DNA from: Candidatus Latescibacterota bacterium
GTDB lineage: Bacteria > Latescibacterota > UBA2968 > UBA8231
Direction of reading: 5' to 3'
DNA length: 64,000 nucleotides
NCBI GenBank assembly: GCA_964291625.2
Contig: OZ220089.1
Coordinates: 3,488,001-3,552,000, forward strand
Each line of letters opens with the position of its first letter. Position 1 is the first letter of the stretch. Positions 1 to 42,685 of the stretch are shown here, in pieces. Below the pieces are notes generated by a model. The model was not told where the DNA came from, made no database searches, and worked only from the letters and a program-made list of their open reading frames with translations. Position numbers and translations under genes: made by a program.

Positions 1-411
1 GGTGTCCAGCAGCACGGGGTAGAGGCGGCGGATCCGGGCCTCGACGCCGTCCTCGGTCGTCTCTGCGGACGGACCGTCGTCCGGACCGTGGATGAAGACC
101 AGGCGGCCCCCCAGGTCAGGCAGCCCGGCGTCGAGCAGATTCGCCTTCAGGTCGTTGCAGTATTGGCAGGTGGTGGTGACGAAGACGAGAGCGGAAGTCC
201 GGCCCTTCAGGTCGGCCAGTTCCAACCCCGGCCCGGCGATCCCGGCCAGTTGGAAGTCGGGAGCGGGGGTGCCCCGGGGCAGTTGCTGCCACTGGCTGCG
301 CGGCAGCCGGTTCAGCAGGGAGCCCGGCGGACCGTCCACGGCGACCAGGGCCCCGGTCAGGGCGAGGGCCAGCAGGCCGCCGGCCAGGAGAGAGGGTCTG
401 TGCGCCGCCAT
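1..411 (-). CDS. TlpA/redoxin-family thioredoxin-fold protein (partial, runs off window start)
   Basis: Manual translation from ATG 411: MAAHRPSLLAGGLLALALTG...PAPDFQL...LVFVTTTCQYC; N-terminal hydrophobic anchor, PAPDF motif and CxxC; not in ORF track. Confidence 0.8.
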   Translation of the reverse strand, partial: MAAHRPSLLAGGLLALALTGALVAVDGPPGSLLNRLPRSQWQQLPRGTPAPDFQLAGIAGPGLELADLKGRTSALVFVTTTCQYCNDLKANLLDAGLPDLGGRLVFIHGPDDGPSAETTEDGVEARIRRLYPVLLDT

Positions 412-3638: not shown

Positions 3639-4724
3639 TCACCCCTCGCCGAACAGCTCCAGCTGGTCCTGCCCCTGCCGGCGGAACCGGTCCACCGCCA
3701 GTGCGGGCGCCGGCCGGTCCAGCCCGGCCTTCCTCTTGGCGATCCGGAAGAACCGGCTCACCAGCTCCGCCAGTTCCCCCTCGCCGCGCATGCGGTGGCC
3801 GTAGCGCGCGTCCGATAGCTGGCCCCCCCGCACCGCCTCGAGCCGGTGCACGACCTTGCTGGCGCGGTCGGGGTAGTGGCGCTCGAGCCAGTCCAGGAAC
3901 AGGGGGCGCACGGCCCCGGGCAGGCGCACCAGGATGTAGTGGGCCCAGCGCGCCCCCCGGGCCGCCGCCGCTTCCAGGATGGCGGGGGCCTCCGAGTCGT
4001 TGAGCCCCGGGATCAGAGGCGCCACGTTGACCCCCGCCGGCACCCCGGCCCGGGACAGCTCCTCGAACGCCTGCAGGCGCCGCTCCGGCCGCGAGGTGCG
4101 CGGCTCCATGGCCGCCGTGAGCCGGCGGTCGAGGCTGGTGATCGACAGGGTCACGTGAACCAGGTCGAGGGCCGCCATTCTCTCCAGGATGTCGAGGTCG
4201 CGCGTCACCAGGTGGTTCTTGGTGATCAGGCTCACGGGGTTGCGGAACCTGAGGAACACCTCCAGGCACCGCCGCGTGAGCTGCAGCCGCCGCTCCACCG
4301 GCTGGTAGCAGTCGGTGTTGCCCGACAGGGCCACCACTTGGGGCTGCCACGACCTCTTGCGCAGGGCCGCCTCCAGCAGCTCCGGGGCCTGCTCCTTGAC
4401 CAGGATCCTGGTCTCGAAGTCGAGCCCGGCCGAGAACCCCAGGTACTCGTGGGTCGGCCGAGCGTAGCAGTAGACGCAGCCGTGCTCGCAGCCCCGGTAG
4501 GGGTTGAGGCTGAAGCGGAAGCCCACGTCCGGCGAGTCGTTCTCGGCCAGGATGGAGCGGCTGGCGTCGATCAGGTAGCTGGTGGGGACACGCTCCTCGA
4601 AGCCCTCCTCGCCGGGCTCGGCCGGGTCGGGCTCCAGATACAGGGGCTCGAAGCGGTTGGGGGTGTTGAAGCCGGCGGCGCGGCCCCTCTTGCCGGGAGG
4701 CCGGGGCGCGGGTGGGTCGGGCAT
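3639..4724 (-). CDS. PA0069/Rv2578c-family (SplB-like) radical SAM DNA-repair protein
   Basis: NPYRGCEHGCVYCYAR (CxxxCxxC), NTDCYQP, MEPRTS, APLIPGLND, VRLP, C-terminal QLELF. Confidence 0.93.
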   Translation of the reverse strand: MPDPPAPRPPGKRGRAAGFNTPNRFEPLYLEPDPAEPGEEGFEERVPTSYLIDASRSILAENDSPDVGFRFSLNPYRGCEHGCVYCYARPTHEYLGFSAGLDFETRILVKEQAPELLEAALRKRSWQPQVVALSGNTDCYQPVERRLQLTRRCLEVFLRFRNPVSLITKNHLVTRDLDILERMAALDLVHVTLSITSLDRRLTAAMEPRTSRPERRLQAFEELSRAGVPAGVNVAPLIPGLNDSEAPAILEAAAARGARWAHYILVRLPGAVRPLFLDWLERHYPDRASKVVHRLEAVRGGQLSDARYGHRMRGEGELAELVSRFFRIAKRKAGLDRPAPALAVDRFRRQGQDQLELFGEG

Positions 4725-4759
4725 GGGGGCGGACTGCCTTTGTCGGGCACCGGAACAAG

Positions 4760-4801
4760 TGAATATATGTGCAGTATATATCCAAGGCCCGCCCGACGCA
4801 A
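4760..4801 (-). promoter_or_regulatory. Sigma70-type promoter TTGCGT-17-TATACT with overlapping palindromic operator TGCACATATATTCA (candidate SOS box)
   Basis: -35 at 4796-4801, -10 at 4773-4778, 14-bp imperfect palindrome at 4760-4773; AT-rich patch in GC-rich DNA. Confidence 0.65.
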
Positions 4802-6309: not shown

Positions 6310-6462
6310 TTACGGCTCTCTCCGCCGGGCGATCATGGCCCGGATCATGTCGGCCACGTCGCCGAACCCCCGCAGGGCGACGACGGCCACGGTGCCGAAG
6401 AAGAAGGCGCAGGCCAGCAAAAAGACGTAGCTCCAGATCTCGATCCAGGTGGCAGATTCCAT
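6310..6462 (-). CDS. Small 50-aa membrane protein downstream of the SSS transporter
   Basis: Manual translation MESATWIEIWSYVFLLACAFFFGTVAVVALRGFGDVADMIRAMIARRREP; starts 4 nt after SSS stop, GGAG RBS. Confidence 0.75.
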   Translation of the reverse strand: MESATWIEIWSYVFLLACAFFFGTVAVVALRGFGDVADMIRAMIARRREP

Positions 6463-15575: not shown

Positions 15576-15674
15576 GGGCGCACTCTACGAAGGCGGGCAT
15601 CCATGCTCAAGGCCGGGCCGGCCGGCTTCCGGCGCCGGTTGCCGGGGCCCGGCAGCGGCTCCACCTTCCACCCC

Positions 15675-20770: not shown

Positions 20771-21982
20771 TCAGTACTCGTGGCGGCAGGCGTAGATGTG
20801 CAGCATCAGGCCCACGGCGAAACAGTTGGTCAGCAGCGAGGAGCCGCCGTAGCTGAGGAAGGGCAGGGGCAGGCCGGTGATCGGCATGACGCCGATGGTC
20901 ATGCCCACGTTGACGAAGACGTGGAAGGTGAGCATCGAGGCCAGGCCCACGGCCAGCAGGCTGGAGAACCGGCTGTTGGCCAGGGTGGCGATTTGCAGGC
21001 AGCGGCAGATGATGATGAGGAAGAGGACGAGGATGGCGGCGCCGCCGAGGAAACCGAACTCCTCGCCGATGACGGAGAAGATGAAATCCGTGTGGGCCAC
21101 CGGCAGGAACTCGTAGTTGGTCTGCGTGCCCTGCAGGAACCCCCGGCCCGTGGGCCCCCCCGAACCGATGGCGATCTTCGACTGGATGATGTTCCAGCCG
21201 GCTCCCAGGGGGTCGCTCTCGGGGTCGAGGAAGGTGAGGATTCGGGCCTTCTGGTAGTCGTGGAGGAGGTTGGTCCACAGGGCGGTGGCCAGCCCCGCGG
21301 ACAGGTTGACGAAGAGCATGGTGAAGGTCATCCACAGCCGCGCGAGCTGGACCTGGATGACGACCGAGCTGGCGATGATGTAGAGGGCGAAGATGACCGG
21401 CGCCCGGCTCTGCCACAGGGGTTCGAAGGAGAAGAACACGCTCAGGGCCGGGGCCAGGAGGAAGAAGATGTACAGGGGCCTCACCCCCGCCCAGTAGAGC
21501 ATCGGCACGAAGGCGGCCCCGTAGGAGACGGCCGTGCCCAGGTCCGGCTGATGGCGCACCAGGAGCATGGGCAGGGCCGGCAGGAGCAGGGCATGGGCGA
21601 TCGCCCGGGGCCGTCCGGCCTGCTCGGAGGATCGATCCGCGAGGAACCGGGCCAGGGCCAGGATGACGCCGATCTTGGCGAACTCCGACGGCTGCATTCG
21701 CAGCGGGCCCAGGGCCAGCCAGCGGGCCGGCTCGCCGGAGCCCCAGACCAGCACCAGGAGCAGGCTCACGACGCCGGCGGCGTACACCGGGTAGGCGATC
21801 TCGTAGAAGGCCGTGGTGGGCACGTAGGCCACGGCCAGGGCCGCGGCCAGGGCGACGATGGCGACCACGGCCTGATGGCGCCACAGTCCGGAGCCGGCGG
21901 CGCTGTAGATCATGGTGACGCCGCAGGCGATGATGGCGGCCGCGGCGAGGACCAGAACCAGGTCGAACTCACGGGCCCTCAC
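20771..21982 (-). CDS. rodA: Rod shape-determining protein RodA (SEDS glycosyltransferase)
   Basis: QPSEFAK, QPDLGTA, QSKIAIGSGG, HTDFIF, GLPLPFLSYGGSS; GTG 21982; downstream of PBP2. Confidence 0.95.
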   Translation of the reverse strand: MRAREFDLVLVLAAAAIIACGVTMIYSAAGSGLWRHQAVVAIVALAAALAVAYVPTTAFYEIAYPVYAAGVVSLLLVLVWGSGEPARWLALGPLRMQPSEFAKIGVILALARFLADRSSEQAGRPRAIAHALLLPALPMLLVRHQPDLGTAVSYGAAFVPMLYWAGVRPLYIFFLLAPALSVFFSFEPLWQSRAPVIFALYIIASSVVIQVQLARLWMTFTMLFVNLSAGLATALWTNLLHDYQKARILTFLDPESDPLGAGWNIIQSKIAIGSGGPTGRGFLQGTQTNYEFLPVAHTDFIFSVIGEEFGFLGGAAILVLFLIIICRCLQIATLANSRFSSLLAVGLASMLTFHVFVNVGMTIGVMPITGLPLPFLSYGGSSLLTNCFAVGLMLHIYACRHEY

Positions 21983-23742
21983 GCTCCCCCTTCCCCTTCC
22001 CCTTCCGCGGCGGGAGCCGCCGCCATGGAGCCCTTGTCGACGCGGCCGGCCAGCCACGCCTCGAGGACGGCGCGCACCACCGGCGCGGCCACGGCGCCGC
22101 CGCCGCCGCCGCCTTCGACGACGGCGACGACGGCGATCTCGGGGCGATGGTACGGAGCGAAGGCGACGAACCAGGCGTCGTCGTCCCGGTTCGGGCCCTG
22201 GGCGGTCCCCGACTTGCCGGCGATCGCCAGGCCCTCGATCCGGGCTCTGCGGCCGGTGCCGCGGTCTCCGTGGACGACGCGGTGCATGGCGCGCCGCACG
22301 ATGCCGAGGGTCGAGGCCGAGAGGCCCTCGATCCGCCGGGCCGGCGGCGGCCGGCCGTGCAGGTGCGGGGTGACGAGATGACCGCCGTTGGCGAAGGCGG
22401 CCACGTAGCGGGCCACCTGCAGCGGCGTCACCAGGGTCTCCCCCTGCCCGATGACCAGGTTCATCAGGTACCCCAGGGCCCAGCCCTGACGGTCGGCGTA
22501 GAACTGGCGGTCGGGGAGCTGGCCGGAGACCTCGCCCGGGTTGAGGTCGATGCCGGTGGGGGAGCCGAGGCCGAGGCGCCGTCCGTAGTCGTGCCAGGCG
22601 TCGATCCCCAGGAGCTGGCCGAGGTGGTAGAAGTAGATGTTGCAGGAGGTCTCCATCGCCTCCAGGAGGCCGAGCTCGCCGTGCCCCCGGCGGCTGGCAC
22701 AGCGGAAGACGACATTGCCCATCGACATCGACCCGTAGCACCGGGGGAAGGTGGACAGGGTATCGGTGAGACCTCTCTCCAGCGCCGCCGCGGCGGCGAC
22801 CATCTTCAGGGTCGATCCGGGCGGATAGCGTCCGCGGATGGCGCGGTTGAGGAGGGGCCGGGCCGGGTCGCGCATCAGCCGCACGCGCTCGGCCTGGGCC
22901 CCGAAGGAGACGAAGGCGTTGGGGTCGAAGGAGGGGTGGCTCACCAGGGCCCGCACCGCCCCGGTGCGCACGTCGAGGGCGACGACGCTGCCGGCCAGCG
23001 AATCGGGCATCGCCTGCACCGCCGCCCGGTGCAGGTCCAGGTCCACCGTCAGCCGCAGGGAGCCGCCCGGCTGCGCCGGCCGCTCGCGGTCGGGGAAGGG
23101 GTGCTCGTTCTGGGTGCGCTGCTCGGCATCGACCTCGATGTAGGCCACCCCGTCCAGCCCTCGCAGGCTGGCCTCGAAGTCGCGCTCCAGCCCGGTCTTG
23201 CCGACGTAGTCTCCGGCCGCGTAGTGCGGTCCTCCACCCAGTTCCGACTCCTGCAGCTCACCCATGTAGCCGACCACGTGCGCCGTCAGGGGGCCGTGGG
23301 GATAGAGCCGCTGCGGCTCGATCTGCACCTGCAGGGCCCAGTCCTCGCTCAGGCGCTCCTCGACGATGGCCACGGTGCGGAAGTCGACGTCCCGTTTCAG
23401 GCGCAGCGTGCGCCGGCCGCGGTCGTAGCGAAGGGGGTGGCCGACGGCCTCCTCGAGAGCGGCGACGGCCATGGAGTCCACGGCGCGACGCCCCCGGGTC
23501 AGGAGGATGCCGTACGAGGCGCGGTCGCGCGCCAGGATCTCGCCGTCCCGGTCGAGGATCAGCCCCCGGGGCGCCTTCAGGCGCTTGCGGGCGATGCGGT
23601 TGTCCTCCGCGGCCTGGGCGTAGCCGGCGCCCTCCAGGATCTGCAGGTGGAACAGGCGCAGCAGGAGGATGGCGAAGAGCACGGCCACCAGGACCATCAG
23701 GCGGGTCCTGCGGAAGAAGCCCTCGAGGGCCTCGGGGTCCAT
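21979..23742 (-). CDS. mrdA: Penicillin-binding protein 2
   Basis: APRGLILDRDG, PGSTLK (SxxK), SCN, GKSGTA; between mreD and rodA. Confidence 0.95.
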   Translation of the reverse strand: MDPEALEGFFRRTRLMVLVAVLFAILLLRLFHLQILEGAGYAQAAEDNRIARKRLKAPRGLILDRDGEILARDRASYGILLTRGRRAVDSMAVAALEEAVGHPLRYDRGRRTLRLKRDVDFRTVAIVEERLSEDWALQVQIEPQRLYPHGPLTAHVVGYMGELQESELGGGPHYAAGDYVGKTGLERDFEASLRGLDGVAYIEVDAEQRTQNEHPFPDRERPAQPGGSLRLTVDLDLHRAAVQAMPDSLAGSVVALDVRTGAVRALVSHPSFDPNAFVSFGAQAERVRLMRDPARPLLNRAIRGRYPPGSTLKMVAAAAALERGLTDTLSTFPRCYGSMSMGNVVFRCASRRGHGELGLLEAMETSCNIYFYHLGQLLGIDAWHDYGRRLGLGSPTGIDLNPGEVSGQLPDRQFYADRQGWALGYLMNLVIGQGETLVTPLQVARYVAAFANGGHLVTPHLHGRPPPARRIEGLSASTLGIVRRAMHRVVHGDRGTGRRARIEGLAIAGKSGTAQGPNRDDDAWFVAFAPYHRPEIAVVAVVEGGGGGGAVAAPVVRAVLEAWLAGRVDKGSMAAAPAAEGEGEGGA

Positions 23743-23748
23743 GGCGGG

Positions 23749-24234
23749 CTAGTGGGCGATCACCCGTCGGCGCAGGCGGATCGCCAGGGCGGCGATCAGA
23801 CCGATGACACCGGTGTAGAGGGCGCGCCCGAGGCCGAAGCGGTACATCATGCCGGGCACCTCCTCGAAGGAGGTGGAGCTGGCGCCGACGTAGTAGATGA
23901 GATCGTGGACGAGCACGGCGGCCACGAGCACGCCCACCTGCACCTGGACGGTGTCGGCCAGCAGGCTGTCGCGGGCGGCTCCGACGCCGAACCCCACGAG
24001 CGACTTGGCCAGGGCGTTCAGGCCCAGGTCCGGGGGGGAGTAGGCATCCTGGCAGAGGCCGGCCAGGAAACCCAGGACCGTCGCCTCCAGGTGGCCCGAC
24101 ATGAGGGCGATGAAGACGACCGCCGTGAGCACGAGATCGGGCAGGATCCCGGCGATCTGCAGGTGGTGGATCCAGGTGGACTGGAGGACGAAGGCCAGGG
24201 CGAGGAAGAGGACGTGGCGCGCAACGGCGAGCAT
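23749..24234 (-). CDS. mreD: Rod shape-determining protein MreD
   Basis: 161-aa hydrophobic protein, PDLVL, GFLAGLCQD, GLNAL; directly upstream of mrdA. Confidence 0.88.
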   Translation of the reverse strand: MLAVARHVLFLALAFVLQSTWIHHLQIAGILPDLVLTAVVFIALMSGHLEATVLGFLAGLCQDAYSPPDLGLNALAKSLVGFGVGAARDSLLADTVQVQVGVLVAAVLVHDLIYYVGASSTSFEEVPGMMYRFGLGRALYTGVIGLIAALAIRLRRRVIAH

Positions 24235-26237
24235 CAGGGCCCCTCGGCCGCCTCGCCGACGGGGATGTGCAGCTCCATGCCGATGAGCAGGGACGACGAC
24301 AGGCTCAGGTTGTTCTGGCGGGCGATATCGGCGACGTCGACGCCGAAGCGGCGGGCGATGCCGTAGAGCGTGTCCCCCCCCACCACGGTGTAGGAGCCGC
24401 CCCCCGCCGAGGCGGCGTCGGCCAGGTACAGGCTCTGCCCCGGCCGGATGACGTCGTCGGCGAGCCCGTTCCACGAACGGAGGTCGGCCACCGTCACCTG
24501 GTGAGTCCGCGAGATCGACCACAGCGACTCGCCCTGGCGGACGGTGTGCACGCGGCGGCCGGCGCGGACCGCCGGGGCGGGGGCATCGCCTCCGGCGGGC
24601 GCTGGCTGGCGGGTCACCAGCGCGCCGCGGCCCACCTTGAGCCTCTGCCCCGGCTGCAGGAGGTTGTCGGCAAGCCCGTTCCAGGCGCGCAGGTCTTCCA
24701 CGCGGACGCCGTAGCGCCGGCCGATCGACCACAGCGACTCGCCGGAGCGGACGGTGTGCACCGCGCCCCCCTCCGGCGCCGGGCCCGGGCCCGGGATGGC
24801 GGCCCCCCTCACGATCGGGACCACCAGGGTCCGGCCGGGATGGATGAGGGCGCGCCCGGAAAGCCCGTTGGCCTCGGCCAGCCGCCGGTGGTCGACCCCG
24901 AAGGCGCGGGCGATGCTCCAGAGATTGTCGCCTTGGCGGACCGTGTACCTCGCGACCCCCCGCTTCTCCGACTTGGGCAGCCGCGCGAGGGCGGCCAGGA
25001 AGTCGTCGCCGCGGCCCTCGGGCACCTTGAGCAGGTAGCCGCTCTCGGGCCAGGGGGGGGTGAAGAGGCTGCGCAGCTCCGGATTGAGGTTGCGCAGGAG
25101 GCTCACCGACACGCCGAGGAGCCGGGCGGCGGTGTGCAGATCGATCAGCTCTCGCAGCCGGACGTGTTCCCAGAGGATGGGCGGATCCGGCTCGACCGGC
25201 TCGAAGCCGAAGCGCTGCGGGTCCTTGGAGATGACCGCCGCGGCCATGATCAGGGGCACGTAGTTGCGGGTCTCCCGGGGCAGGGGGAGCTGCCAGAAGT
25301 CGGTCGTGCCCGCCCGCTGGATGGCCCGGCTCACCCGGCCGCGGCCGGAGTTGTAGGCGGCCGCCGCCAGTCGCCAGTCGCCGAACTCGGCGTACAGGCC
25401 CTTCAGGTGCTGGACGGCGGCGCGCGTGGATTTCACCGGGTCGCGGCGCTCGTCGACCCAGCTGTCGATCACCAGCCCCTCGAGGCGGCCGGTCTGCCGG
25501 ATGAACTGCCACAGGCCGGAGGCGTGGGCCCGCGAGTAGGCCCGCGGGTTGAAGCCGCTCTCGATCATGGACAGGTAGAACAGGTCCTCGGGCAGCCCTT
25601 CCTCGCGCAGGATGGGCAGGATCAGGTCGCGGTAGCGCCCCGCCCGCCGGGTCCAGGTCTGCCAGGTCTCGCGGGCGCGGGTCTGGAAGAAGTGGATGCT
25701 GGCGGCGACGCGGTCGTTGGCGTCGATGGGGAAGTCGCATCGGGGGGCCATCTGGTGGATGCGTACGACGGGGACGGCGTCCTCCGGCAGCTCCTCCAGG
25801 ATCTCGTCGGCCAGCTCGGACAGCACGAGGGACAGGGGGCTGTCGGGGGAGAGGTGCTCGACGAAGGGCAGGACCTTCAGGTAGGCGCGCCCGAGGTCGG
25901 CGGCCAGGGCGTCGACCTCGGCCTGGCCGTCGCGCTCGCCGAGCTCGTCGAGGATGGGGCTGCCGTCGACCAGGGCCAGCGTATAGTAGGCCTGGTCCAG
26001 CTCCTCGCGGGCCCGGTCGTGGCGCTCGGACCGGAGCTCGTCGAGGGCGCGCAGCCAGCGCCAGCGGGCCTCGCGCAGGGCGGCGTCGAACTCGGGCTCG
26101 CGGGAGGGATCGACCTCGACGGCGGGGGGGCCGGGCGCGGGGGCGGCCTCGGGGGCCGGCTGCCCGGGCGCCTGGAGGCTGGCGCAGGCGGTCCACTGGA
26201 CCGCGGCGGCGGCGATGACGGCGGACAGGACCCTCAA
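24234..26237 (-). CDS. mltD: MltD-like lytic transglycosylase with four LysM domains
   Basis: IESGFNPRAYSRAHASGLWQF, AAYNSG, LPRETRNYVP; four TVxxGD/ESL LysM repeats; TTG 26237 overlaps upstream stop. Confidence 0.9.
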   Translation of the reverse strand: MRVLSAVIAAAAVQWTACASLQAPGQPAPEAAPAPGPPAVEVDPSREPEFDAALREARWRWLRALDELRSERHDRAREELDQAYYTLALVDGSPILDELGERDGQAEVDALAADLGRAYLKVLPFVEHLSPDSPLSLVLSELADEILEELPEDAVPVVRIHQMAPRCDFPIDANDRVAASIHFFQTRARETWQTWTRRAGRYRDLILPILREEGLPEDLFYLSMIESGFNPRAYSRAHASGLWQFIRQTGRLEGLVIDSWVDERRDPVKSTRAAVQHLKGLYAEFGDWRLAAAAYNSGRGRVSRAIQRAGTTDFWQLPLPRETRNYVPLIMAAAVISKDPQRFGFEPVEPDPPILWEHVRLRELIDLHTAARLLGVSVSLLRNLNPELRSLFTPPWPESGYLLKVPEGRGDDFLAALARLPKSEKRGVARYTVRQGDNLWSIARAFGVDHRRLAEANGLSGRALIHPGRTLVVPIVRGAAIPGPGPAPEGGAVHTVRSGESLWSIGRRYGVRVEDLRAWNGLADNLLQPGQRLKVGRGALVTRQPAPAGGDAPAPAVRAGRRVHTVRQGESLWSISRTHQVTVADLRSWNGLADDVIRPGQSLYLADAASAGGGSYTVVGGDTLYGIARRFGVDVADIARQNNLSLSSSLLIGMELHIPVGEAAEGP

Positions 26238-27055
26238 GGCCGCTCCTCCGCCGGGATGACGATCTCCGCCTGGATCCGGGTGGCGCTGGGGTAACCCAGC
26301 CGGCGGCAGCGGTCGGCGAACTGCTGCGCCGCCGCGGAGGTGCGGAAGCTGCCGGCCAGGATCTTGTACCACGGCTCCTCGAAGCGGATGTCCAGGTCCT
26401 GGCGCTCGAGCCGGGCCGCGGCCCGGTCGCGCAGGCCGCGGGCGTCCTCGTGGCGCTTGTGCTGGGCGATCAGGACCCGCCATCCCTGGAGGCGCACCAT
26501 CTCGGGCGGCGGCTCCTCGGTGGCGGCGGGGGCCTCGACCTCCTTCGCCTCGGGAGCTTCGACCTCGTCGAGTTCCTCGGGCGCGGCGGACGGCGGCGCC
26601 TCGGCCTCGGGGGCCGCGGCGGTGCTGTCGGCGACGACGAAGGCCTGGGAGAAGTCCCTGCCCAGGGCGGCCAGCTCCCGGCGCAGGCGGTCGGCCCCGG
26701 CGCGGTCGGCGAAGCGGCCGGCGACCACCGAGTGGAGCCCTCCGTGGGGGACGACGTCGACGGCCAGCCCCAGGCGGCTTCCGAGGCCGGCGGCGATCTC
26801 CCGCGCCGCCTCCTCCCGGCTCAGGCTGATGACCTGCACGCGCCAGGCCGTCCCCAGCGAGTCGGAGGCCCCCCCGGGGGTGGCCGCGGCGGGCCGGGGC
26901 AGCAGCTCCGGCGGTGCGAACCGCGGCTGGATGAGGACGAGGTCCTCGCGGTACCGGGCCGGATCGAAGTCGTCGCGAAACTGCGAGGCGGCCGGGTGGG
27001 CCAGGGCGGCGATGGTCAGGCCGCCGAGGAAGGCGACCGCCCGGGTGCGCGCCAT
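26234..27055 (-). CDS. Secreted protein with two SPOR domains
   Basis: Signal peptide; WRVQVISLS...GRFADR and GWRVLI...YKILAGSF...GYP SPOR-like repeats with an acidic linker. Confidence 0.8.
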   Translation of the reverse strand: MARTRAVAFLGGLTIAALAHPAASQFRDDFDPARYREDLVLIQPRFAPPELLPRPAAATPGGASDSLGTAWRVQVISLSREEAAREIAAGLGSRLGLAVDVVPHGGLHSVVAGRFADRAGADRLRRELAALGRDFSQAFVVADSTAAAPEAEAPPSAAPEELDEVEAPEAKEVEAPAATEEPPPEMVRLQGWRVLIAQHKRHEDARGLRDRAAARLERQDLDIRFEEPWYKILAGSFRTSAAAQQFADRCRRLGYPSATRIQAEIVIPAEERP

Positions 27056-27057
27056 CC

Positions 27058-28115
<1,058 letters not shown>

Positions 28116-28119
<4 letters not shown>

Positions 28120-28523
28120 CCGCGGCCCTCCTCCGTCACCACGGCGTCCCCCGCGGCCGGCTGCTCCTCCTCCCAGCCGTCGGGCAGGCGCGTCGCCGGG
28201 GCGTCGCCCCACAGGCGTTCGAGCCCGTAGAACTCGCGCGCCTCCCGGCCGAAGATGTGGACGACCACGTCGACGAAGTCGACGAGGACCCAGCGCAGGG
28301 ACTGGCGGCCCTCGACGTGCCACGGCCGGTGCCCCTGTCGGCGCAGCTGGTCCACGAGGTCGTCGGTCAGGGACCGGATGTGGGGCTCGGAGGTGCCAGA
28401 GCAGAGGACGAAGTAGTCGGCGGTGTCGCTGATGCCGCGCAGGTCGATGACCACCAGGTCGAGGGCCTTCCTGTCGCGCAGGGTCTCGAGGATGGGCTCC
28501 AGCAGGGGGTCGGCGGCGGTCAA
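28116..28523 (-). CDS. rsfS: Ribosomal silencing factor RsfS (Iojap)
   Basis: DYFVLCSG, WVLVDFVDVVVHIF, REFYGLERLW. Confidence 0.95.
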
Positions 28524-28990
28524 TTCGACGCCCCGGAGGCGGAGTCGAACAGCCCCAGGCGACGGTAGTCGCGGCCGACGACGACGGTGATCGCCTCGAG
28601 CCGGTAGCCGTCGTCGCTGAGCTGCTGGATGGCTTCGGGAATCCCGAGGAGGTGGGCGACGTGGCGCGCCTTCTCGAGGTCGCCGTTGCGGTCGATGACG
28701 ACGGACTCGACGAAGTCGAAGCTGGAGGCGTTGCCCTCGTGGATGACGTCGAGTCCGAGGGACCGGGCCTTGTCGGTCATCCGCGCCGCCACCAGGGAGG
28801 CACCGCAGCCGTTGAGGACGGCCAACTGGAAGTCGTCCAGGGGGACGGGGGGGGAAACCTCGGCGGGCGGGGCCTGCGGCTGCGGCTGGGGCGCCGGGGC
28901 GTCCGGGGCCTGCGCCCGGGGCCAGAACTGGACTGCCAGCAGCGCCGTGCACGCCGCGCCCGCCAGCAGACAGAGGGCCTTCTCCTGCAC
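28520..28990 (-). CDS. LytR C-terminal domain protein
   Basis: TM, Pro-rich linker, VLNGCG...GNA...VVVGRDY; common neighbour of rsfS; start uncertain. Confidence 0.85.
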   Translation of the reverse strand: MQEKALCLLAGAACTALLAVQFWPRAQAPDAPAPQPQPQAPPAEVSPPVPLDDFQLAVLNGCGASLVAARMTDKARSLGLDVIHEGNASSFDFVESVVIDRNGDLEKARHVAHLLGIPEAIQQLSDDGYRLEAITVVVGRDYRRLGLFDSASGASN

Positions 28991-29094
28991 GTTCGGAAGC
29001 GGAATCCCGGTTAGCCCGAAAGGGGCGAGGAGGCCGCGAGCGACCGGAGGCCGGTCCGGGGGCGCACGCGAACCCCCCCCAACCTCCAATGACA

Positions 29095-29124
29095 ATTATG
29101 CCACCGGGAGCCGCCGGAAGTCAA
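29095..29124 (-). promoter_or_regulatory. Sigma70-type promoter TTGACT-18-CATAAT for the LytR_C-rsfS-...-rodA operon
   Basis: -35 at 29119-29124, TG-extended -10 at 29095-29100. Confidence 0.6.
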
Positions 29125-29143
29125 AGGGCGGCGAACAGCCGGC

Positions 29144-29296
29144 TCAGGCCGGAAGCAGCTCCATGCCGATGCGCGCCAGCAGGTAGGCCGCGGAGGCCGC
29201 CGTGAGAGCGCGGGCGACGCGGTCCACCGGGGCGGACGGCACCGAGACGAACCGCAACCGGGGCTGGATGACGATGTGCAGGGCAATGCTGAACAT
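29144..29296 (-). CDS. Small 50-aa hydrophobic protein, probably leaderless
   Basis: MFSIALHIVIQPRLRFVSVPSAPVDRVARALTAASAAYLLARIGMELLPA*; 47 of 50 codons end in G/C; ATG 6 nt after a -10 box; below ORF-track cutoff. Confidence 0.7.
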   Translation of the reverse strand: MFSIALHIVIQPRLRFVSVPSAPVDRVARALTAASAAYLLARIGMELLPA

Positions 29297-29331
29297 GCGT
29301 ATAGGTTACTGAACATCGTTGCAGGTGTCAA
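29290..29331 (-). promoter_or_regulatory. Promoter TTGACA-17-TAACCT with two tandem TGAAC-N4-KTRYA operators (candidate SOS boxes)
   Basis: -35 at 29326-29331, -10 at 29303-29308; boxes TGAACATGCGTATA 29290-29303 and TGAACATCGTTGCA 29310-29323 (+ strand). Confidence 0.65.
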
Positions 29332-29343
29332 GAGCGATCTCCT

Positions 29344-32064
29344 TCAGAACAGACCCGAGTACTTGAAGGTGAGGATGTAGTCGCGGGTGCCCTCGCGCCG
29401 GGCCCTGGGACGGGAGTCGTAGATGTCCCAGGCGAAGCCGAAGAGAAAGCGGTCCTTGTAGAGGGACAGGGCCAGCCCGAGGGAGACGGCGATGGAGTTG
29501 TCCGTGGAGAGCGCCTCCAGAACGTTGCCGATGGCGGTGAGGTGGACGCCGGATACGGCGGGGTGCTCGGCGTTGTGCCAGCCCGCGAAGGCGATGCCCG
29601 GCAGACCGATGAGCCGCTCCGTCTTGCCCTTCACGAGGCGGCCCTCTTCGTCGGTGCGGTCGCGCCCCGGGCGGATGGCGAGGAAGGAGACCAGGGGCTT
29701 GGCCTCGAAGGCCCACTTCCAGCCGCCGGACTCCAGGATCTGGGAGATCGACTGCTCCGGCCCTCCGGCGTGGCTCCGGGTGGTGAGCCGCAGGCGCACC
29801 CGTTTGATGCCGGTGTCGGTCAGGCGGAGGTTGAGGTCCTCCACGTGGACGCTGTCCTCGCTGTCGGCGTAGATCTGCACCCGGGCCTGCCGGGGACCGC
29901 CCTTGGGGTCGTAGTTCTCGTCGAGCTGGACCCACTCCACGTCGACCCGGCGCCCCACCAGGGCCTGCCGCAGGGTGTCGGGAAGGTCGATCCGCATGTC
30001 GATCCGGGTGCCGTCGCGCACCACCAGGGGCGTGGGGGTCCAGGGCACCTCCAGCGGCCGGGCTCCGGACTTGCCCGTGGCCAGCACGGAGACGATGGAC
30101 GCCAGGTCGACGACGCCCAGGGCCCCCCGTCCGCGGATCTTGATGGGCTGCGCCTTGTCGCGCACGTCGTTGCTGATCAGCAGGATCTGGCCGAAGCGCT
30201 CCCCCAGGGCCTCCGGGGAGAAGTGGATGTTCAGGGTCGTCGACTCCCCGGGGTCGAGGGAGAAGGCCGAGGGCTCCACGCGGGCCTCGCCGGTGAGGGC
30301 GCTGGCCTCCACCTGCAGGGCGGTGTCGCCGGAGTTGGTCGCCACCAGCGGCCGCTGGTCGCTCTCGCCGATGACGACGTGTCCGAAGTCGAGCACTCCG
30401 GACGGATGCAGCTCGATCTCGGCGGCGACGCCGGTGCCGGTGAGCAGCACCTCGAGGTTGGCGGCGCCGCCCTCCCAGAAGCCCTCGAGGCGCAGGGTGC
30501 CGCTCACGGGCCCGCGCGCCGAGGGCGCGAAGGTGACGCGCACCGGCAGCGAGCCCAGGCCGTTGCCGGGCAGCCGGTGTGCCCCCCCGTCGGGAGAGAC
30601 CTGCGTGAAGATGGTGAAGTCGTCGCTCGTGGAGTGGATGCGGCCGATGGAGAAGTCGGCGTTGCCGCCGTTGGTCAGCTCGATGATGCCGCTGCCGGAT
30701 TCGCCCACGGGAACCCGGCCGAAGTCGAAGGCCGTCGGCTTGAGCTGCAGAAAGCGGCCCGTCCCCTGCAGCTGCATCCGGCGGCGGCCGGCCTCGGTGT
30801 GGACCGACAGGGCGCCCTCGCGCAGGCCGACCTCCCGGGGGCGGAAGACCAGCTCCACGCGGCCGCTCTCCCCGGGGTTGAGCAGGAGCGTGCCGGTCTC
30901 CAGGTCGAACTCGGGGCCGCTGCCCTCCTCCAGCTCGAGGCGCACCAGGAAGGGGGTGCCGCCCCGGTTCCACATGAGCAGCGGCAACCGCGCCGGCTTG
31001 CCCAGGGGCACGCTGCCGAAGTCGATGGGAGAGCGGTCGAGGAGCTCCACGTGCGGCGGGCCGACCTGCCCCATGCCGGTGAGGGGGACCTCGAGGCGGC
31101 GGCGCTGCGGATCGTTGCTGGTCAGCAGGAGGGCGGCGCTGTCCGGCCCCTCGTAGCGCGGCCGGAAGCGGACTGCGACATCGCGCCGGGCCCCCGGCCC
31201 GAGCCGCAGGGGCGACTCTCCGCCCACCTCGAAGGCCTCGTCGGCCAGTTGCAGGGAGAGATCGAGATCGCCCCGACCCTGGTTGATCAGGGTGAGTCGG
31301 CGGCGGGAGGCCGCCCCCATCTCGACGGTCTCGAAGTCGATCCCCACCTCGGGCAGGGGGGAGACCGCCAGCCGCGGGGCCAGTCCCTCGCCGGCGAGGG
31401 GAACGGTCATGGCGGGCAGGTCCGCGGAGTGCACGTGCAGGCGGCCCCGGAAGGTCCCGTCGCCGGACGGGTTGAAGAGCACGCCGACCTCCGTGCGCGA
31501 GCCCGGCGCCAGAGGGCGGTCCGGGGCGCCCGCGAGCGAGAACGGCCCCGACGCGGGCTCGATGGAGAGGCTGTCGACGACCAGCTCCACGCCGCCGGGG
31601 TTCATCAGCTCCAGGGAGCGGCGCACGACCCGCCCCACCGGGGCCGGCCCGGCGTCGATCCCGGCCTCGGGGCCGGGACGCAGGCGCAGCCGCGGCCGCT
31701 CGACGGAAGCGGCGAGCCCGACGCGGGCCTGCTCGCTGCCGAAGAGCTCCCCGGTCTGCAGGGAGAGCTCGCCGGCGTGGGATCCGGTGTCAGCGGCGCT
31801 GAACTCGACGGTCAGGGAGCGGGTGGCGGCGGCCGGCAGATGGAGGGTGTCGGCGGCGACGGAGAATCCCTCGCCCTCGACCCGCAGATCGACCTCCAGG
31901 TCGTCGGCGCCGGTGTTGCGCACCGAGACCTCGAGGCGGCTGGTGCGGCCGGGCTTGAGGGCCCCGAAGTCGAGGCTGTCGGGCTGGACCTGGAGCGGCT
32001 GCGCGCCCAGCCCCGATGGGGGGAGCCACAGGGCGCCGGCGGCGAGGAGAAGGACGGCGCGCAT
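29344..32064 (-). CDS. Secreted protein with six ASH/choice-of-anchor-D Ig-like repeats and a beta-rich C-terminus
   Basis: ATG 32064, signal peptide; six repeats of (L/I)DFG...N(T/S/Q/R/P/G)G...F.P...G; ends YILTFKYSGLF. Confidence 0.8.
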   Translation of the reverse strand: MRAVLLLAAGALWLPPSGLGAQPLQVQPDSLDFGALKPGRTSRLEVSVRNTGADDLEVDLRVEGEGFSVAADTLHLPAAATRSLTVEFSAADTGSHAGELSLQTGELFGSEQARVGLAASVERPRLRLRPGPEAGIDAGPAPVGRVVRRSLELMNPGGVELVVDSLSIEPASGPFSLAGAPDRPLAPGSRTEVGVLFNPSGDGTFRGRLHVHSADLPAMTVPLAGEGLAPRLAVSPLPEVGIDFETVEMGAASRRRLTLINQGRGDLDLSLQLADEAFEVGGESPLRLGPGARRDVAVRFRPRYEGPDSAALLLTSNDPQRRRLEVPLTGMGQVGPPHVELLDRSPIDFGSVPLGKPARLPLLMWNRGGTPFLVRLELEEGSGPEFDLETGTLLLNPGESGRVELVFRPREVGLREGALSVHTEAGRRRMQLQGTGRFLQLKPTAFDFGRVPVGESGSGIIELTNGGNADFSIGRIHSTSDDFTIFTQVSPDGGAHRLPGNGLGSLPVRVTFAPSARGPVSGTLRLEGFWEGGAANLEVLLTGTGVAAEIELHPSGVLDFGHVVIGESDQRPLVATNSGDTALQVEASALTGEARVEPSAFSLDPGESTTLNIHFSPEALGERFGQILLISNDVRDKAQPIKIRGRGALGVVDLASIVSVLATGKSGARPLEVPWTPTPLVVRDGTRIDMRIDLPDTLRQALVGRRVDVEWVQLDENYDPKGGPRQARVQIYADSEDSVHVEDLNLRLTDTGIKRVRLRLTTRSHAGGPEQSISQILESGGWKWAFEAKPLVSFLAIRPGRDRTDEEGRLVKGKTERLIGLPGIAFAGWHNAEHPAVSGVHLTAIGNVLEALSTDNSIAVSLGLALSLYKDRFLFGFAWDIYDSRPRARREGTRDYILTFKYSGLF

Positions 32065-39293: not shown

Positions 39294-40250
39294 ATGCCCT
39301 GGCGAATCCTGATGCAGTCGGACGTGGAACCCTACGAGACGGTCATGCGCCTGCTGGATGAGGCCGGCTGCGAGCTGGACTGGTGGCGCGAGCCCGAGCC
39401 GCCGCCCGGCGTCGATTACGGCGCCATCGAGGGCATCTACGTGTACAGTCACATGTGGGTGAGCAAGGAACTGATGGCCCGCTGCCCGAACCTGAAGATC
39501 GTCAGCAACTTCGGCGTCGGCTGCGACCACATCGACCTGGAGGGCGCCCGCTCCCTCGGCCTGCCGGTGGGCAACACCCCGGGCGTGCTCGACGCGGCCA
39601 CCGCCGACCTGACCTGGACCCTGCTGCTGGCGGCGGCGCGCAACGCCATCCGCGGCGACCACTTCGCCCGCGGCCCGGAGTTCACCCACTACGACGCCGC
39701 GATCCTCCTCGGCCAGCAGGTGACCGGGGCCGCCCTCGGCATCGTCGGCCTCGGCCGCATCGGCTACCAGGTCGCCCGGCGGGCGGCGGGCTTCGACATG
39801 GAGATCCTCTACCACAACCGCAACCGCAACGAGCGCGCCGAGCGGGAGCTGGGCGCCCGCTACCTGTCCCTCGACGAGCTGCTGGAGCAGTCCGACTTCG
39901 TCACCCTCAACTGCCCCCTCACGGAGGAGACCCGCGGCCTCATCGGCTCCCGCGAGATCGGGCTCATGAAGCCGACGGCGGTCCTCGTCAACGCCGCCCG
40001 GGGCCCGGTCTGGGACCAGGAGGCGGTCCTCGAGGCCCTGCGCGCCGGGCACCTGCACGCCGCCGCCACCGACGTGACCGACCCGGAGCCGCTGCCGCGC
40101 GACCATCCCCTGCTGGCGCAGGAGAACCTGGTGATCTTCCCGCACCTGGGGTCGGCCACCCGCCAGACCCGGGACGCCATGTCGACCATGTCCGTGGACA
40201 ACCTGGTGGCGGGGCTCGAAGGGCGGGAGGTGCCTTACCGGATCGCGTAG
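39294..40250 (+). CDS. D-isomer specific 2-hydroxyacid dehydrogenase (glyoxylate/hydroxypyruvate reductase-like)
   Basis: NTPGVL, GIVGLGRIG, VNAARG, DVTDPEP, PHLGSAT. Confidence 0.95.
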   Translation: MPWRILMQSDVEPYETVMRLLDEAGCELDWWREPEPPPGVDYGAIEGIYVYSHMWVSKELMARCPNLKIVSNFGVGCDHIDLEGARSLGLPVGNTPGVLDAATADLTWTLLLAAARNAIRGDHFARGPEFTHYDAAILLGQQVTGAALGIVGLGRIGYQVARRAAGFDMEILYHNRNRNERAERELGARYLSLDELLEQSDFVTLNCPLTEETRGLIGSREIGLMKPTAVLVNAARGPVWDQEAVLEALRAGHLHAAATDVTDPEPLPRDHPLLAQENLVIFPHLGSATRQTRDAMSTMSVDNLVAGLEGREVPYRIA

Positions 40251-40300
40251 CTTGGTACCGAATCATTGAGATCTTACTGAGTCGGGAGGCTAATCGGCCA

Positions 40301-40822
40301 ATGAGCCCAAGAAGAAGGAAACCGAACCCGAGCTTCATGCGGCCTCTGCAGCCTGATGCAGTCTTGGGTGCAATCGTCGGGCATGAACCCATGCCACGAA
40401 CCGAGGTTGTAGTACGGCTCTGGTCATACATTAAAGTGAATAGGCTCCAGGACAGTCGGAACAAACGGATGGTAAAGGCTGATAGAAAGCTCGGACCGCT
40501 GTTCGGTGGAAAGAGCGAAGTCAGCATGTTTGAAGTGACGCGACTCGTGTCGTTGCACCTGCGTGCCCTCTCGCATGCAGAACAGCAAGTCTACGATGCT
40601 GCTGGAGAGAAGCGAGAGCTATCTCGATCATATCGCCTATTGGGCTGTTCGCCAGACGCTTCAGATGACGACCTGAGGCAACGCTATCGTGACTTGTGCC
40701 GACAGTATCATCCCGATCGTGTAAGTTCTCTGGGACCTGAGCTAGTCGAGCTCGCAACCGAGAAATTCCAGGAGATCCAATATGCCTACGACCTTGTCTT
40801 GTCAGACCGACAGGATGGGTGA
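40301..40822 (+). CDS. SWIB/MDM2 domain fused to a C-terminal DjlA-type J-domain
   Basis: FMRPLQP...PRTEVVVRLWSYIKVNRLQDSRNKR (SWIB) followed by YRLLG...YHPDRV...KFQEIQYAYD (J-domain, HPD); GGAGG RBS; lower GC. Confidence 0.85.
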   Translation: MSPRRRKPNPSFMRPLQPDAVLGAIVGHEPMPRTEVVVRLWSYIKVNRLQDSRNKRMVKADRKLGPLFGGKSEVSMFEVTRLVSLHLRALSHAEQQVYDAAGEKRELSRSYRLLGCSPDASDDDLRQRYRDLCRQYHPDRVSSLGPELVELATEKFQEIQYAYDLVLSDRQDG

Positions 40823-40920
40823 GGCTTTGGCCGGTGCCTCTATGGCTGAACAGGTCCATGGGACACAGCTATGCACAGTGTGCGCGAATGTGAATGATGC
40901 TCTGCTACGGATATCGGGGG

Positions 40921-41661
40921 ATGGTCAAGGTGGTGGCTTTGCACGATGATGCACTGAGATTGGCAGAACTTGATCGACAGGTAGTTCAAGCTATCGTCGA
41001 TGGACATATTGAAAGTTTGTTTTCTGTGCTGGAGGCGTACCTGGAACTGAAGGCAAGTCTTCAGCAGCGACTTCTGGATGAATCGGCTATATCGGTTCAA
41101 GATGCAGAAGCGCGGGAGGTTCTTCGCAAAATTGGCGGAAACGATGGTTTTCGGTCGGACGAAATTGTCGAGCGAATCAAGGCCCGTACGGGCGAGGACT
41201 TGGCGGCTGAGGGATTCGAGGACGCGGACCTTGAGAGGTTGGGCTCCGATCTATTCTACTCCTGGTATAGTCACGAAGAGTACGTGAGAGCACTTCGCGA
41301 GTTGCGACCGCTGATCTTGGGATGCAACACCTCGGAAAGCGTAATCCGACTGGTAGAGCAGATCAAGCGGTGCTATGCCTTTCAGCAATATGACGCAGCG
41401 TTCGGATTGTGCCGGACTGTACTTGAGGCAAGTATTCGAGACATATGCGTTCGGCAAGGACTATTCCCTAACCGGAAGGAAAGCGCCGTACTCTACGATA
41501 AGATCTACTGGTGGAAGTTGCGCAACGTCGTGTCCTCTGGACACCTCAATGAGACCTTAGAAGATCTGTTCGGGCGCCTCTCCAAGGTGTTGCACGCGCG
41601 GAGAACGGTAGGGGCCAACGAGGCCCGTGAAGTCTTCGAGGAGACAGTATTTGGTTATTGA
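40921..41661 (+). CDS. Hypothetical protein with C-terminal DUF4145/HEPN-like domain
   Basis: AAFGLCRTVLE and RLSKVLH (Rx5H); lower GC; start uncertain; possible +1 indel near 41652 (alternative end VIEKLYEFHNLR*). Confidence 0.6.
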   Translation: MVKVVALHDDALRLAELDRQVVQAIVDGHIESLFSVLEAYLELKASLQQRLLDESAISVQDAEAREVLRKIGGNDGFRSDEIVERIKARTGEDLAAEGFEDADLERLGSDLFYSWYSHEEYVRALRELRPLILGCNTSESVIRLVEQIKRCYAFQQYDAAFGLCRTVLEASIRDICVRQGLFPNRKESAVLYDKIYWWKLRNVVSSGHLNETLEDLFGRLSKVLHARRTVGANEAREVFEETVFGY

Positions 41662-41743
41662 GAAGCTCTACGAATTCCACAACCTCCGATGAGTTTGGAT
41701 CAATCCCAAATGAGCCCACCCACATCAGTGAGCAAACATTAGA

Positions 41744-42685
41744 ATGCCAGAGAACGCCCACTACGACGTCCTGATCATCGGTTCCGGCCCGGCCGGGTTC
41801 ACCGCCGCCGTGTACGCGGCGCGGGCGGACCTGGCGCCGCTGGTGCTGGAAGGCATGCAGCCCGGCGGGCAGCTGACGATCACCACCGACGTGGAGAACT
41901 ACCCCGGCTTCCCCGAGGGGATCATGGGGCCCGAGATGATGGACAAGTTCCGCGAGCAGGCCCAGCGGTTCGGCGCCACCACTCTCTTCCGGACCGCCAC
42001 CGAGGTCGACCTCTCCAAGCGCCCCTTCGCGGTGAAGGCCGAGGACCGGAGCTTCACCGCCGATGCGGTGATCATCGCCACGGGCGCCTCGGCGCGGCTC
42101 CTCGGCATCGAGTCGGAGACCCGGCTCATGGGCCACGGCGTGTCGGCATGCGCCACCTGCGACGGCTTCTTCTTCCGCGACAAGGAACTGGTCGTGGTCG
42201 GCGGCGGCGACTCGGCCATGGAGGAGGCCACCTTCCTGACCAAGTTCGCCACGCGGGTGAGCATCGTGCACCGGCGCGCCGAGTTCCGGGCCTCGAGGAT
42301 CATGCTCCACCGGGCCGAGGAGAACGAGAAGATCGACTTCGTCACGCCGGCCGTGGTGGAGGAGATCCTGTCACCCGACGGCGAGCTGGAGGTCAGCGGC
42401 GTGCGCCTGAGCAATCCGGAGACAGGCGAGACCTGGGAGCACCCGTGCCAGGGGGTGTTCATGGCCATCGGCCACATACCGAACACCCAGCTCTTCGAGG
42501 GCGTCCTCGAGATGGACGAGAACGGCTACCTGAGCACGGCCCCCGACTCGACGCGGACCAACGTCGAAGGCGTATTCGCCTGCGGCGACGCCCAGGACCA
42601 CGTCTACCGGCAGGCGGTGACCGCCGCCGGCACGGGATGCATGGCCGCCATCGAGGCCGAGCGCTGGCTGGGGGAGCGGAGCTGA
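41744..42685 (+). CDS. trxB: Thioredoxin-disulfide reductase
   Basis: [40 protein letters not shown]. Confidence 0.97.

Follow-up and report, generated by a model that had tools for sequence, protein, structure and literature searches.

The stretch considered here, called the window, is a 64,000-nt piece of the genome of the uncultured, soil-type Candidatus Latescibacterota bacterium (assembly GCA_964291625.2, contig OZ220089.1, positions 3,488,001-3,552,000). All positions are relative to it, and its GC content is 71 %. On its minus strand, between a gene for a long repeat protein and an envelope operon, lies a 50-codon open reading frame (ORF) with a promoter of its own, P1, and two boxes that resemble operators of the SOS repressor LexA overlap this promoter. 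The overall reading favoured here is that of a LexA-type-repressed, leaderless, tail-anchored small protein made on DNA damage, and it is put forward with confidence and doubt in about equal measure.

The small open reading frame and its promoter

Read along the minus strand, the order is GGAGATCGCTC-TTGACA-CCTGCAACGATGTTCAG-TAACCT-ATACGC-ATG. The features are the following:

29326..29331, minus strand: -35 hexamer TTGACA of P1, invariant in 5/5 aligned sequences
29309-29325, minus strand: 17-nt spacer
29309..29324, minus strand: box 2, CTGCAACGATGTTCAG, candidate LexA operator in the spacer; exact match to the half-site pattern CTRHAMNNNNGTTCAG (defined below), with 0-1 mismatch in 4 relatives
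29303..29308, minus strand: -10 hexamer TAACCT (TAATCT in relative L001, TAACAT in L003 and L004)
29288..29304, minus strand: box 1, CTATACGCATGTTCAGC, candidate LexA operator from the -10 end across the predicted start site and first codons; 1/17 mismatch to CTRHAMRYBYGTTCAGS
29297-29302, minus strand: ATACGC, the 6-nt gap from the -10 to the ATG
29144..29296, minus strand: 50-codon ORF (stop included), encoding a small protein whose C-terminal helix is hydrophobic; ATG at 29296-29294, stop at 29146-29144

The GC counts of the ORF at codon positions 1, 2, and 3 are 35/50, 25/50, and 47/50, and the confident genes of the window have GC1, GC2, and GC3 of 0.58-0.84, 0.42-0.62, and 0.86-0.99. The recount of GC3 agrees with the strong coding bias (47 of 50 codons ending in G or C) named in the original prediction, and the pattern is gene-like. 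GC1 exceeds GC2, and this strand is therefore picked rather than a shadow frame. When all window ORFs of at least 40 codons are filtered by GC3 > 0.85 and GC1 > GC2 + 0.05, three ORFs below 80 aa pass, namely the small ORF, infA (IF-1, Pfam eIF-1a), and another 50-aa ORF, which adjoins a symporter gene. The last of these, at 6310-6462 on the minus strand, has GC values of 0.55/0.47/0.90 and no Pfam match, and the gene immediately upstream of it codes for a sodium:solute symporter.

A genome scan for relatives matched 30 stretches, of which 4 (L001-L004) were confirmed, all syntenic and all close; two of the genomes are near-complete, with contigs of 2.6 Mb (CBDCSU010000006.1) and 5.5 Mb (OZ252098.1). 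L001 and L002 are labelled Gemmatimonadaceae and L003 and L004 Candidatus Latescibacterota, the loci are near-identical, and named RodA homologues are mostly labelled Latescibacterota. The labels conflict, so the phylum assignment is uncertain. The ORF is free of insertions and deletions (indels) in the window and all four relatives. A few bases past the stop there is a 10-13-nt insertion, and the sequences are conserved again at a second promoter, P2. Synteny and ORF conservation had been proposed as a check on the gene, and the four loci keep frame, length, and promoter. The Nei-Gojobori omega of the ORF is 0.39, 0.31, and 0.56, and these values derive from only 3/3, 5/4, and 6/9 changes (synonymous/non-synonymous). 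For comparison, omega is 0.08-0.64 in six neighbouring genes and 1.46-2.75 in an out-of-frame MtnA-type fragment, which serves as an accidental negative control.

The stretch could also be non-coding: it might give rise to a small RNA or form a 5' leader, its frame being open through chance at a high GC content. At 71 % GC such frames are frequent, and one of 50 codons is uninformative (29 ORFs of at least 30 aa overlap one 5-kb stretch). The selection evidence is thin, with 3-6 synonymous against 3-9 non-synonymous changes per pair. The contrast between frames is weak as well: the ratio of non-synonymous to synonymous changes per site (pN/pS) is 0.53 in the ORF frame, while the two remaining sense frames have 0.70 (frame +1) and 1.91 and the antisense frames 0.98, 0.50, and 1.83 (summed over 10 non-independent pairs). 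These points count against the favoured reading. The codon-position GC, however, is gene-like and picks both strand and frame, deletions are in frame and indels begin after the stop, and the protein conservation reaches relatives of 31-77 aa that share only a C-terminal core. Rfam gives no match in the region or in the whole window, no tRNAs occur in the window, and a structured-RNA reading was rejected on an ordinary RNA fold (z -0.67). The ORF is very probably a translated gene, and the non-coding explanation is highly improbable.

The promoter TTGACA-17-TAACCT with the ATG 6 nt downstream lies at the coordinates given in the original prediction. Its hexamers, 17-nt spacer, and 6-nt gap are kept in all five sequences; within the -10, T1, A2, A3, and T6 are invariant and only positions 4 and 5 vary. 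P1 thus combines a strong -35 with a weak -10. A consensus scanner calls it in L003 and L004 at 10/12 (2 sites per 2 kb versus 0.1 expected) and leaves it uncalled in the window itself, because TAACCT matches TATAAT at only 3 of 6 positions.

The -10 ends 6 nt before the ATG and no Shine-Dalgarno (SD)-like tetramer is present, which is the arrangement by which leaderless genes are recognised (-10 at 5-8 nt before the start, no SD). Only 8 of the 32 gene starts in the window have an SD-like tetramer, and its absence is therefore no argument against translation. A regular expression for leaderless genes (TTGNNN-16..18-TANNNT-4..9-start codon, followed by an ORF of gene-like composition) finds two places in the window, the small ORF and a COX3-like gene at 14982-15575, both with a 17-nt spacer, a 6-nt gap, and ATG. 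The promoter of the COX3-like gene, on the minus strand at 15576-15610, reads TTGAGC-17-TAGAGT-6-ATG. This shared geometry suggests that leaderless mRNAs are in use in this organism. The leaderless start that had been claimed is borne out as a matter of geometry, by an own promoter, the -10-6-ATG arrangement, and the lack of an SD-like tetramer.

Two candidate LexA operators

The LexA consensus used for comparison is that of Myxococcus xanthus, and its use by this organism is assumed. According to the portion of PMC9705874 that was available, the SOS box of M. xanthus, CTRHAMRYBYGTTCAGS, forms an imperfect palindrome, with gel shifts on lexA, recA2, recN, and pafBC sites; it also stands in Table 5 of PMC2248561. 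The half-site pattern CTRHAMNNNNGTTCAG, or CTRHAM-N4-GTTCAG, is this box minus its spacer and last base.

The original prediction had placed one box in the spacer and one starting at the last T of the -10 (29303), and both positions are correct. Its own pattern, TGAACNNNNKTRYA, was fitted after the sites had been seen; it matches 29290-29303 and 29310-29323 only, with 0.11 expected and none of 100 shuffles giving two or more. The M. xanthus motif is independent of that choice. The full box at up to 1 mismatch has box 1 as its sole match in the window (0.04 expected; 4/100 shuffles had one). The half-site pattern has two exact matches in the 64 kb, both in P1, against 0.01 expected, and 0/100 shuffles gave two. 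When only the 66-nt promoter stretch (48 % GC) is shuffled, at least one match occurs in 22/200000 trials and at least two in 1/200000. By these counts, the agreement of the boxes with a known LexA motif is well beyond what chance would give.

Both boxes have the same orientation and lie 20 nt apart from start to start and 20 bp from centre to centre. The 8-mer CTGAACAT is repeated exactly at this 20-nt spacing in boxes 1 and 2, and both left halves fit CTRHAM independently of it. The core promoter is overlapped twice, by box 2 in the spacer and by box 1 from the last -10 base across the start. In the four relatives, the boxes have 0-2 mismatches to the half-site pattern; the genomes are close (synonymous divergence, dS, up to ~0.3), too close to prove constraint on the boxes.

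The likeness to the M. xanthus operator extends to 16/17 positions in box 1 and to 12/12 half-site positions in both boxes. In both organisms the operator, a candidate one here, lies in the core promoter and is an imperfect palindrome whose GTTCAG half is the strong one. In the lexA gel-shift oligonucleotide of M. xanthus, as given in the part of the source at hand, the box directly follows TTGACT, and box 2 here begins one base after the -35. The differences are that the phylum is another one, that the box 2 spacer departs from RYBY at 3/4 positions, and that binding here is predicted only. The operator core is common to the CGAAC-N4-GTTCG type of Firmicutes, as tabulated in PMC9578287 (Table 1) and PMC2248561 (Table 5).

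It is rather probable, judging from these matches, that the LexA of this lineage binds the boxes and represses P1 until DNA damage occurs. The promoter had been described as doubly operator-blocked and SOS-controlled. What stands of this is that two sites over the core promoter match an independent motif (2 versus 0.01 expected); LexA control itself is likely rather than proven.

Several results weigh against this regulation. Only close relatives were compared at the DNA level (ORF dS 0.07-0.18), which leaves the promoter conservation with little weight, and the right half of box 1 coincides with ATG-TTC-A, which encodes a conserved Met-Phe-Ser/Thr, so that coding may account for the conservation of this half. 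In relaxed form the motif shows no enrichment in the window: with up to 2 mismatches, TGAACN4GTTCA has 9 matches versus 8.3 expected, TGNACN4GTNCA at up to 1 mismatch has 12 versus 12.5, and the full M. xanthus consensus at up to 3 mismatches has 13 versus 14.9. The half-site pattern at up to 2 mismatches has 21 versus 13.7, a number that 6/100 shuffles reach. No published LexA motif was found for Gemmatimonadota/Gemmatimonadetes or Latescibacterota, so that a Myxococcus-type box is assumed for the host, and a term search of the Bacteroidetes LexA paper PMC8565304 gives no mention of related phyla. The lexA gene is not in the 64-kb window.

These results leave room for a real small-protein gene outside the SOS response, expressed under some other condition, with the CTGAACAT repeats bound by another regulator or derived from a local duplication that involves no repressor. 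An exact 8-nt direct repeat at 20-nt spacing could be such a duplication, box 1 is partly under constraint from the first codons, the looser motif versions show no enrichment, and the site at the radical-SAM gene described next is only a 2-mismatch match. Against it, both degenerate left halves fit CTRHAM outside the repeated 8-mer, two exact half-site matches arise in 1/200000 local and 0/100 window shuffles, and the position and orientation of the boxes mirror the M. xanthus lexA oligonucleotide as far as its source was available. A non-SOS gene is unlikely on this evidence, and it is the most serious rival to LexA control.

A second promoter of the window offers a comparison:

3639..4724, minus strand: PA0069-family radical-SAM ('photolyase-like') gene; NCBIfam NF033668, 478.8 bits versus a cutoff of 360
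4759..4774, minus strand: palindromic related box CTGCACATATATTCAC before this gene; 2 mismatches to the half-site pattern, 1 mismatch per strand to TNNANNNATGTTCA

The source cited for the P. aeruginosa SOS gene set is reportedly Cirz 2006. PA0069 is counted among the 15 SOS genes of that species in the consulted part of a preprint (bioRxiv 10.1101/2022.03.14.484287), and for Rv2578c/Rv2579 of M. tuberculosis a LexA peak in chromatin immunoprecipitation sequencing and RecA-dependent induction are given in the part of PMC3381160 available. The radical-SAM gene also has a weaker match to the Rv2578c family. It had been called a DNA-repair gene; its family recurs among SOS genes, being SOS-controlled in P. 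aeruginosa and LexA-bound in M. tuberculosis.

The box starts at the last T (4773) of TATACT in TTGCGT-17-TATACT, which is the register of box 1; this promoter is weak and was not called by the consensus scanner. The claim of the same box in the same register at 4760-4773 therefore holds for the register, both boxes starting at the last -10 T. It fails for the pattern: TGAATATATGTGCA is not matched by the pattern of the original prediction and is a looser relative. A further point against the favoured reading is that the radical-SAM box alone is not above background (2-mismatch sites, 21 versus 13.7 expected). The palindrome fits LexA control and is not significant by itself.

A second 2-mismatch half-site match, CTGCAAGTCTGCACAG, lies at 4842-4857 on the plus strand, ~70 nt upstream of the radical-SAM box, and overlaps the last codons of a TPR gene (4835-6103). 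A NrdR-box reading of the AT-rich palindrome was dropped when its centre and half-sites were found misaligned by eye. A Deinococcus-type reading (radiation/desiccation response motif, RDRM) was likewise dropped. P1 also contains an 11-nt inverted repeat, 91 % complementary, between ACGATGTTCAG in box 2 (29309-29319) and CTGCACATCGT in codons 6-9 of the ORF (29271-29281), centred roughly on the start codon. In the relatives only 8-9 of the 11 positions pair, with no consistent compensation in our own comparison of the alignment.

The encoded protein and its possible role

A database search gives 7 clusters that are all exactly 50 aa long and 74-94 % identical, some of them in NCBI-derived sets and unnamed; 14 database clusters of 48-50 aa have 67-94 % identity. 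A hidden Markov model search of 1.84 billion representatives has 8 matches at E <= 1e-3, which comprise one 48-aa relative, three proteins of 34-71 aa that share the C-terminal half only, and four long repeat proteins. The latter (P0009, P0010, P0011, and P0015, 574-1442 aa) were set aside as repeat look-alikes and not relatives: only the PSAPVDRVARAL stretch matched, 4-8 times each, and the match in P0010 sits on a repeated ELPGAPVDQIAKAL-type unit. A profile word search finds 41 proteins, which are 31-77 aa long and include 13 of exactly 34 aa.

The family core lies at the extreme C terminus and reads (A/V)DRxARxLT....YLxVRIGMGLL, with A28, T32, Y38, L39, R42, G44, and L47 invariant in 42/42 aligned sequences. 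The N-terminal 18 residues are conserved in 15 long forms, with conservative swaps (I/V, L/I/M), and P0008 and P0021 have an in-frame 2-residue deletion. One family member is annotated as a hypothetical protein of a Gemmatimonadota metagenome-assembled genome. Two 34-aa members bear implausible Joint Genome Institute names (OHCU decarboxylase and GT-A DUF2064; names of P0065, P0090, and P0155).

Codon 19 (29240-29242) is GTG in 5/5 DNA sequences. Among 16 long forms its residue is V in 8, M in 5, and E in 1 (the outlier P0026), and it is deleted in 2. GTG and ATG are both start codons, and an internal start at codon 19 would yield a product of 32 aa, resembling the short members of 34 aa that are widespread in the family.

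Pfam at E up to 10 gives no family for 11/12 members and DUF3693 at 0.12 for one. NCBIfam, PHROGs, and a PDB sequence search give nothing meaningful for the family. By these searches, the protein is outside any described family, and the family is an unnamed one. Plasmid and phage collections contain no copy of the gene, and a mobile-element origin was rejected on this result.

The window protein has a grand average of hydropathy (GRAVY) of 0.90 and carries a net charge of +3. In 11/12 members the C-terminal helix provides the highest-scoring 19-residue Kyte-Doolittle window, and this reaches at least 1.6 in 7/12. The helical hydrophobic moment is low (0.08-0.21, 12 members), more in keeping with a membrane-spanning than with an amphipathic helix. 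Basic residues (DRxAR) precede the helix and at most 2 residues follow it; the topology is most likely tail-anchored in the inner membrane with a cytoplasmic N terminus. The product probably inserts into the inner membrane. Arg42 and Gly44 in the helix are candidate contact residues. Two points speak against this part of the favoured reading: the Kyte-Doolittle maximum of the window protein is only 1.32 (usual threshold 1.6), and the helix contains an invariant Arg. Hydrophobic segments had been claimed at both the N and the C terminus; the prediction is instead one borderline tail-anchored helix, C-terminal and of moderate hydrophobicity.

SOS-induced small membrane proteins slow division in Caulobacter, Bacillus, and Staphylococcus, according to the portions of PMC9578287 and PMC6851548 consulted. 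SidA of Caulobacter crescentus acts on late division proteins, FtsW in particular (same sources, in part). Like SidA, the protein is small, lineage-restricted, probably membrane-anchored and LexA-controlled, and not encoded beside lexA. Unlike SidA, it has its helix at the extreme C terminus with an invariant Arg; the likening is by description.

The Gram-positive inhibitors YneA, SosA, ChiZ, and DivS are LexA-repressed, have one membrane segment, and show little conservation from one lineage to another (PMC6851548, in the part available); YneA is reported to act on FtsW (PMC13396833, in part). Lineage restriction is shared, and LexA repression and a single membrane segment are candidate traits here. 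Their genes adjoin lexA divergently (PMC6851548, same part), whereas here lexA is absent from the 64-kb window and the ORF is flanked by the genes of a 958-aa choice-of-anchor-D protein and of a LytR_C-domain protein. In those inhibitors the membrane segment is N-terminal and the C-terminal part lies outside the cell, whereas here the helix sits at the C terminus and no more than 2 residues follow it, the reverse of the topology given for SosA in the partial source. LysM domains are described for YneA and ChiZ, in sources available in part, and none is present in the small protein. SosA has 77 aa (PMC6851548, in part) versus the 50-codon ORF here.

The favoured reading can be laid out as a mechanism. 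The locus would be a separate, tightly repressed transcription unit, in which the sigma-70-type P1 would initiate at the A of the ATG, or beside it, and give a leaderless mRNA. A repressor on both operators would block RNA polymerase twice, at the spacer site and at the -10 end and start site. Upon DNA damage, LexA would be cleaved and the small protein made, and the product might then slow envelope growth or division during repair. That it slows division or wall growth during repair is a doubtful proposal, drawn by analogy with SidA, YneA, and SosA, and nothing links the protein specifically to cell division, which tells against this step. The double operator argues that unscheduled expression is costly, which fits an inhibitor and a toxin alike. 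The LexA-operator part is stronger than the original prediction could know, and the division-inhibitor part is a guess.

TisB and DinQ of E. coli are very small hydrophobic peptides under LexA control and act as type I toxins. They are controlled via long leaders and antisense RNAs. The small protein might likewise be an SOS-induced membrane-damaging toxin of this type, causing dormancy or depolarisation instead of acting on a division or elongation target. Its small size, hydrophobicity, and net charge of +3 agree with this, as do the cost of leaky expression suggested by the double operator and a family core that is only ~31-34 aa in many members. However, none of the 12 members matched the Pfam TisB model or another toxin family at E up to 10. 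The opposite strand has no promoter-like site at 28000-30000 for an antisense RNA, and plasmid and phage collections have no copies. The predicted mRNA is leaderless, unlike those of TisB and DinQ, with no long structured 5' leader (fold z -0.67). A toxin of this kind is improbable.

A more specific version of the favoured reading is speculative and rather improbable as a whole. It would make the protein the first of a new micro-protein family in Gemmatimonadota/Latescibacterota whose members are tail-anchored, leaderless, and under LexA control. It would be the DNA-damage checkpoint effector of these bacteria and bind a cell-wall synthase pair of a SEDS (shape, elongation, division, and sporulation) protein and a class B penicillin-binding protein (FtsW-FtsI or RodA-PBP2) through the Arg/Gly membrane helix, in a lineage related to Fibrobacteres, Chlorobi, and Bacteroidetes (FCB) that uses a Myxococcus-type LexA operator.

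SOS-induced small membrane division blockers have been found lineage by lineage, the cases named in the literature available in part being SidA, YneA, SosA, ChiZ, and most recently DdrR. They share no sequence and thus cannot be found by homology. To our knowledge, nothing is known of such SOS-induced small membrane proteins in uncultured phyla. The locus provides a concrete candidate and a first hint of the LexA operator form in this lineage. If the regulation is true, this is a new protein of a known functional kind in a phylum for which no description of an SOS response was found in the literature, and the 41-member family offers a way into the study of damage checkpoints, or of dormancy brought on by damage, in a major soil phylum. 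Otherwise, an ordinary conserved micro-protein remains.

The downstream operon and the neighbourhood

The upstream gene encodes a 958-aa protein with choice-of-anchor-D/Ig-like repeats, and its end lies only 12 nt before the -35 of P1. The features downstream of the small ORF are the following:

29095..29124, minus strand: second promoter P2 of the LytR_C operon, TTGACT-18-CATAAT, whose -10 is preceded by TG; scanner match in the window, L003, and L004
28520..28990, minus strand: LytR_C-domain gene, the first after the small ORF (Pfam LytR_C, E 8e-10)
28116-28952, minus strand: ORF containing RsfS
27058-28323, minus strand: ORF containing an IF-2B/MtnA-type gene
~26234-27100, minus strand: SPOR-domain gene
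24234-26483, minus strand: LysM x4 and SLT transglycosylase
~23752-24240, minus strand: MreD
21979-23742, minus strand: PBP2
20774-21982, minus strand: RodA

P2 lies 20 nt 3' of the small-ORF stop and is conserved in the relatives, with indels between the stop and P2. The LytR_C gene probably starts at GTG 28990 and not at TTG 29095, because frame-breaking indels in the relatives are absent only from that GTG onward. This start gives a ~100-nt leader before LytR_C, and the leader has indels in the relatives.

The small ORF had been placed directly upstream of, and co-oriented with, the peptidoglycan/elongasome operon. Co-orientation is found for all genes from the small ORF through RodA. 'Directly' does not hold: P2 stands between the ORF and LytR_C, and the LytR_C, RsfS, IF-2B/MtnA-type, SPOR, and LysM-SLT genes precede MreD, PBP2, and RodA. 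No LexA, RecA, or S24-peptidase domain was found among the 89 window ORFs run against Pfam.

P1 might be mainly a damage-inducible upstream promoter of the envelope operon (LytR_C, RsfS, and onward to MreD, PBP2, and RodA), with the small ORF as its first, possibly regulatory, cistron. The scans of the window, L003, and L004 show no terminator-like site between the small ORF and the operon, so that P1 transcripts may continue into the LytR_C-to-RodA genes, and the shared orientation is in keeping with this. However, the operon has its own conserved P2 20 nt past the ORF stop, and it is independent of P1. The 41-protein family with its sharply conserved C-terminal core also argues for a function of the protein's own. 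There is only a slim chance that P1 serves mainly the operon.

Farther away, a low-GC stretch at 40000-42000 (0.57-0.58 versus 0.71) contains a gene at ~40340-40819 on the plus strand for a 160-aa fusion of SWIB/MDM2 and DnaJ.

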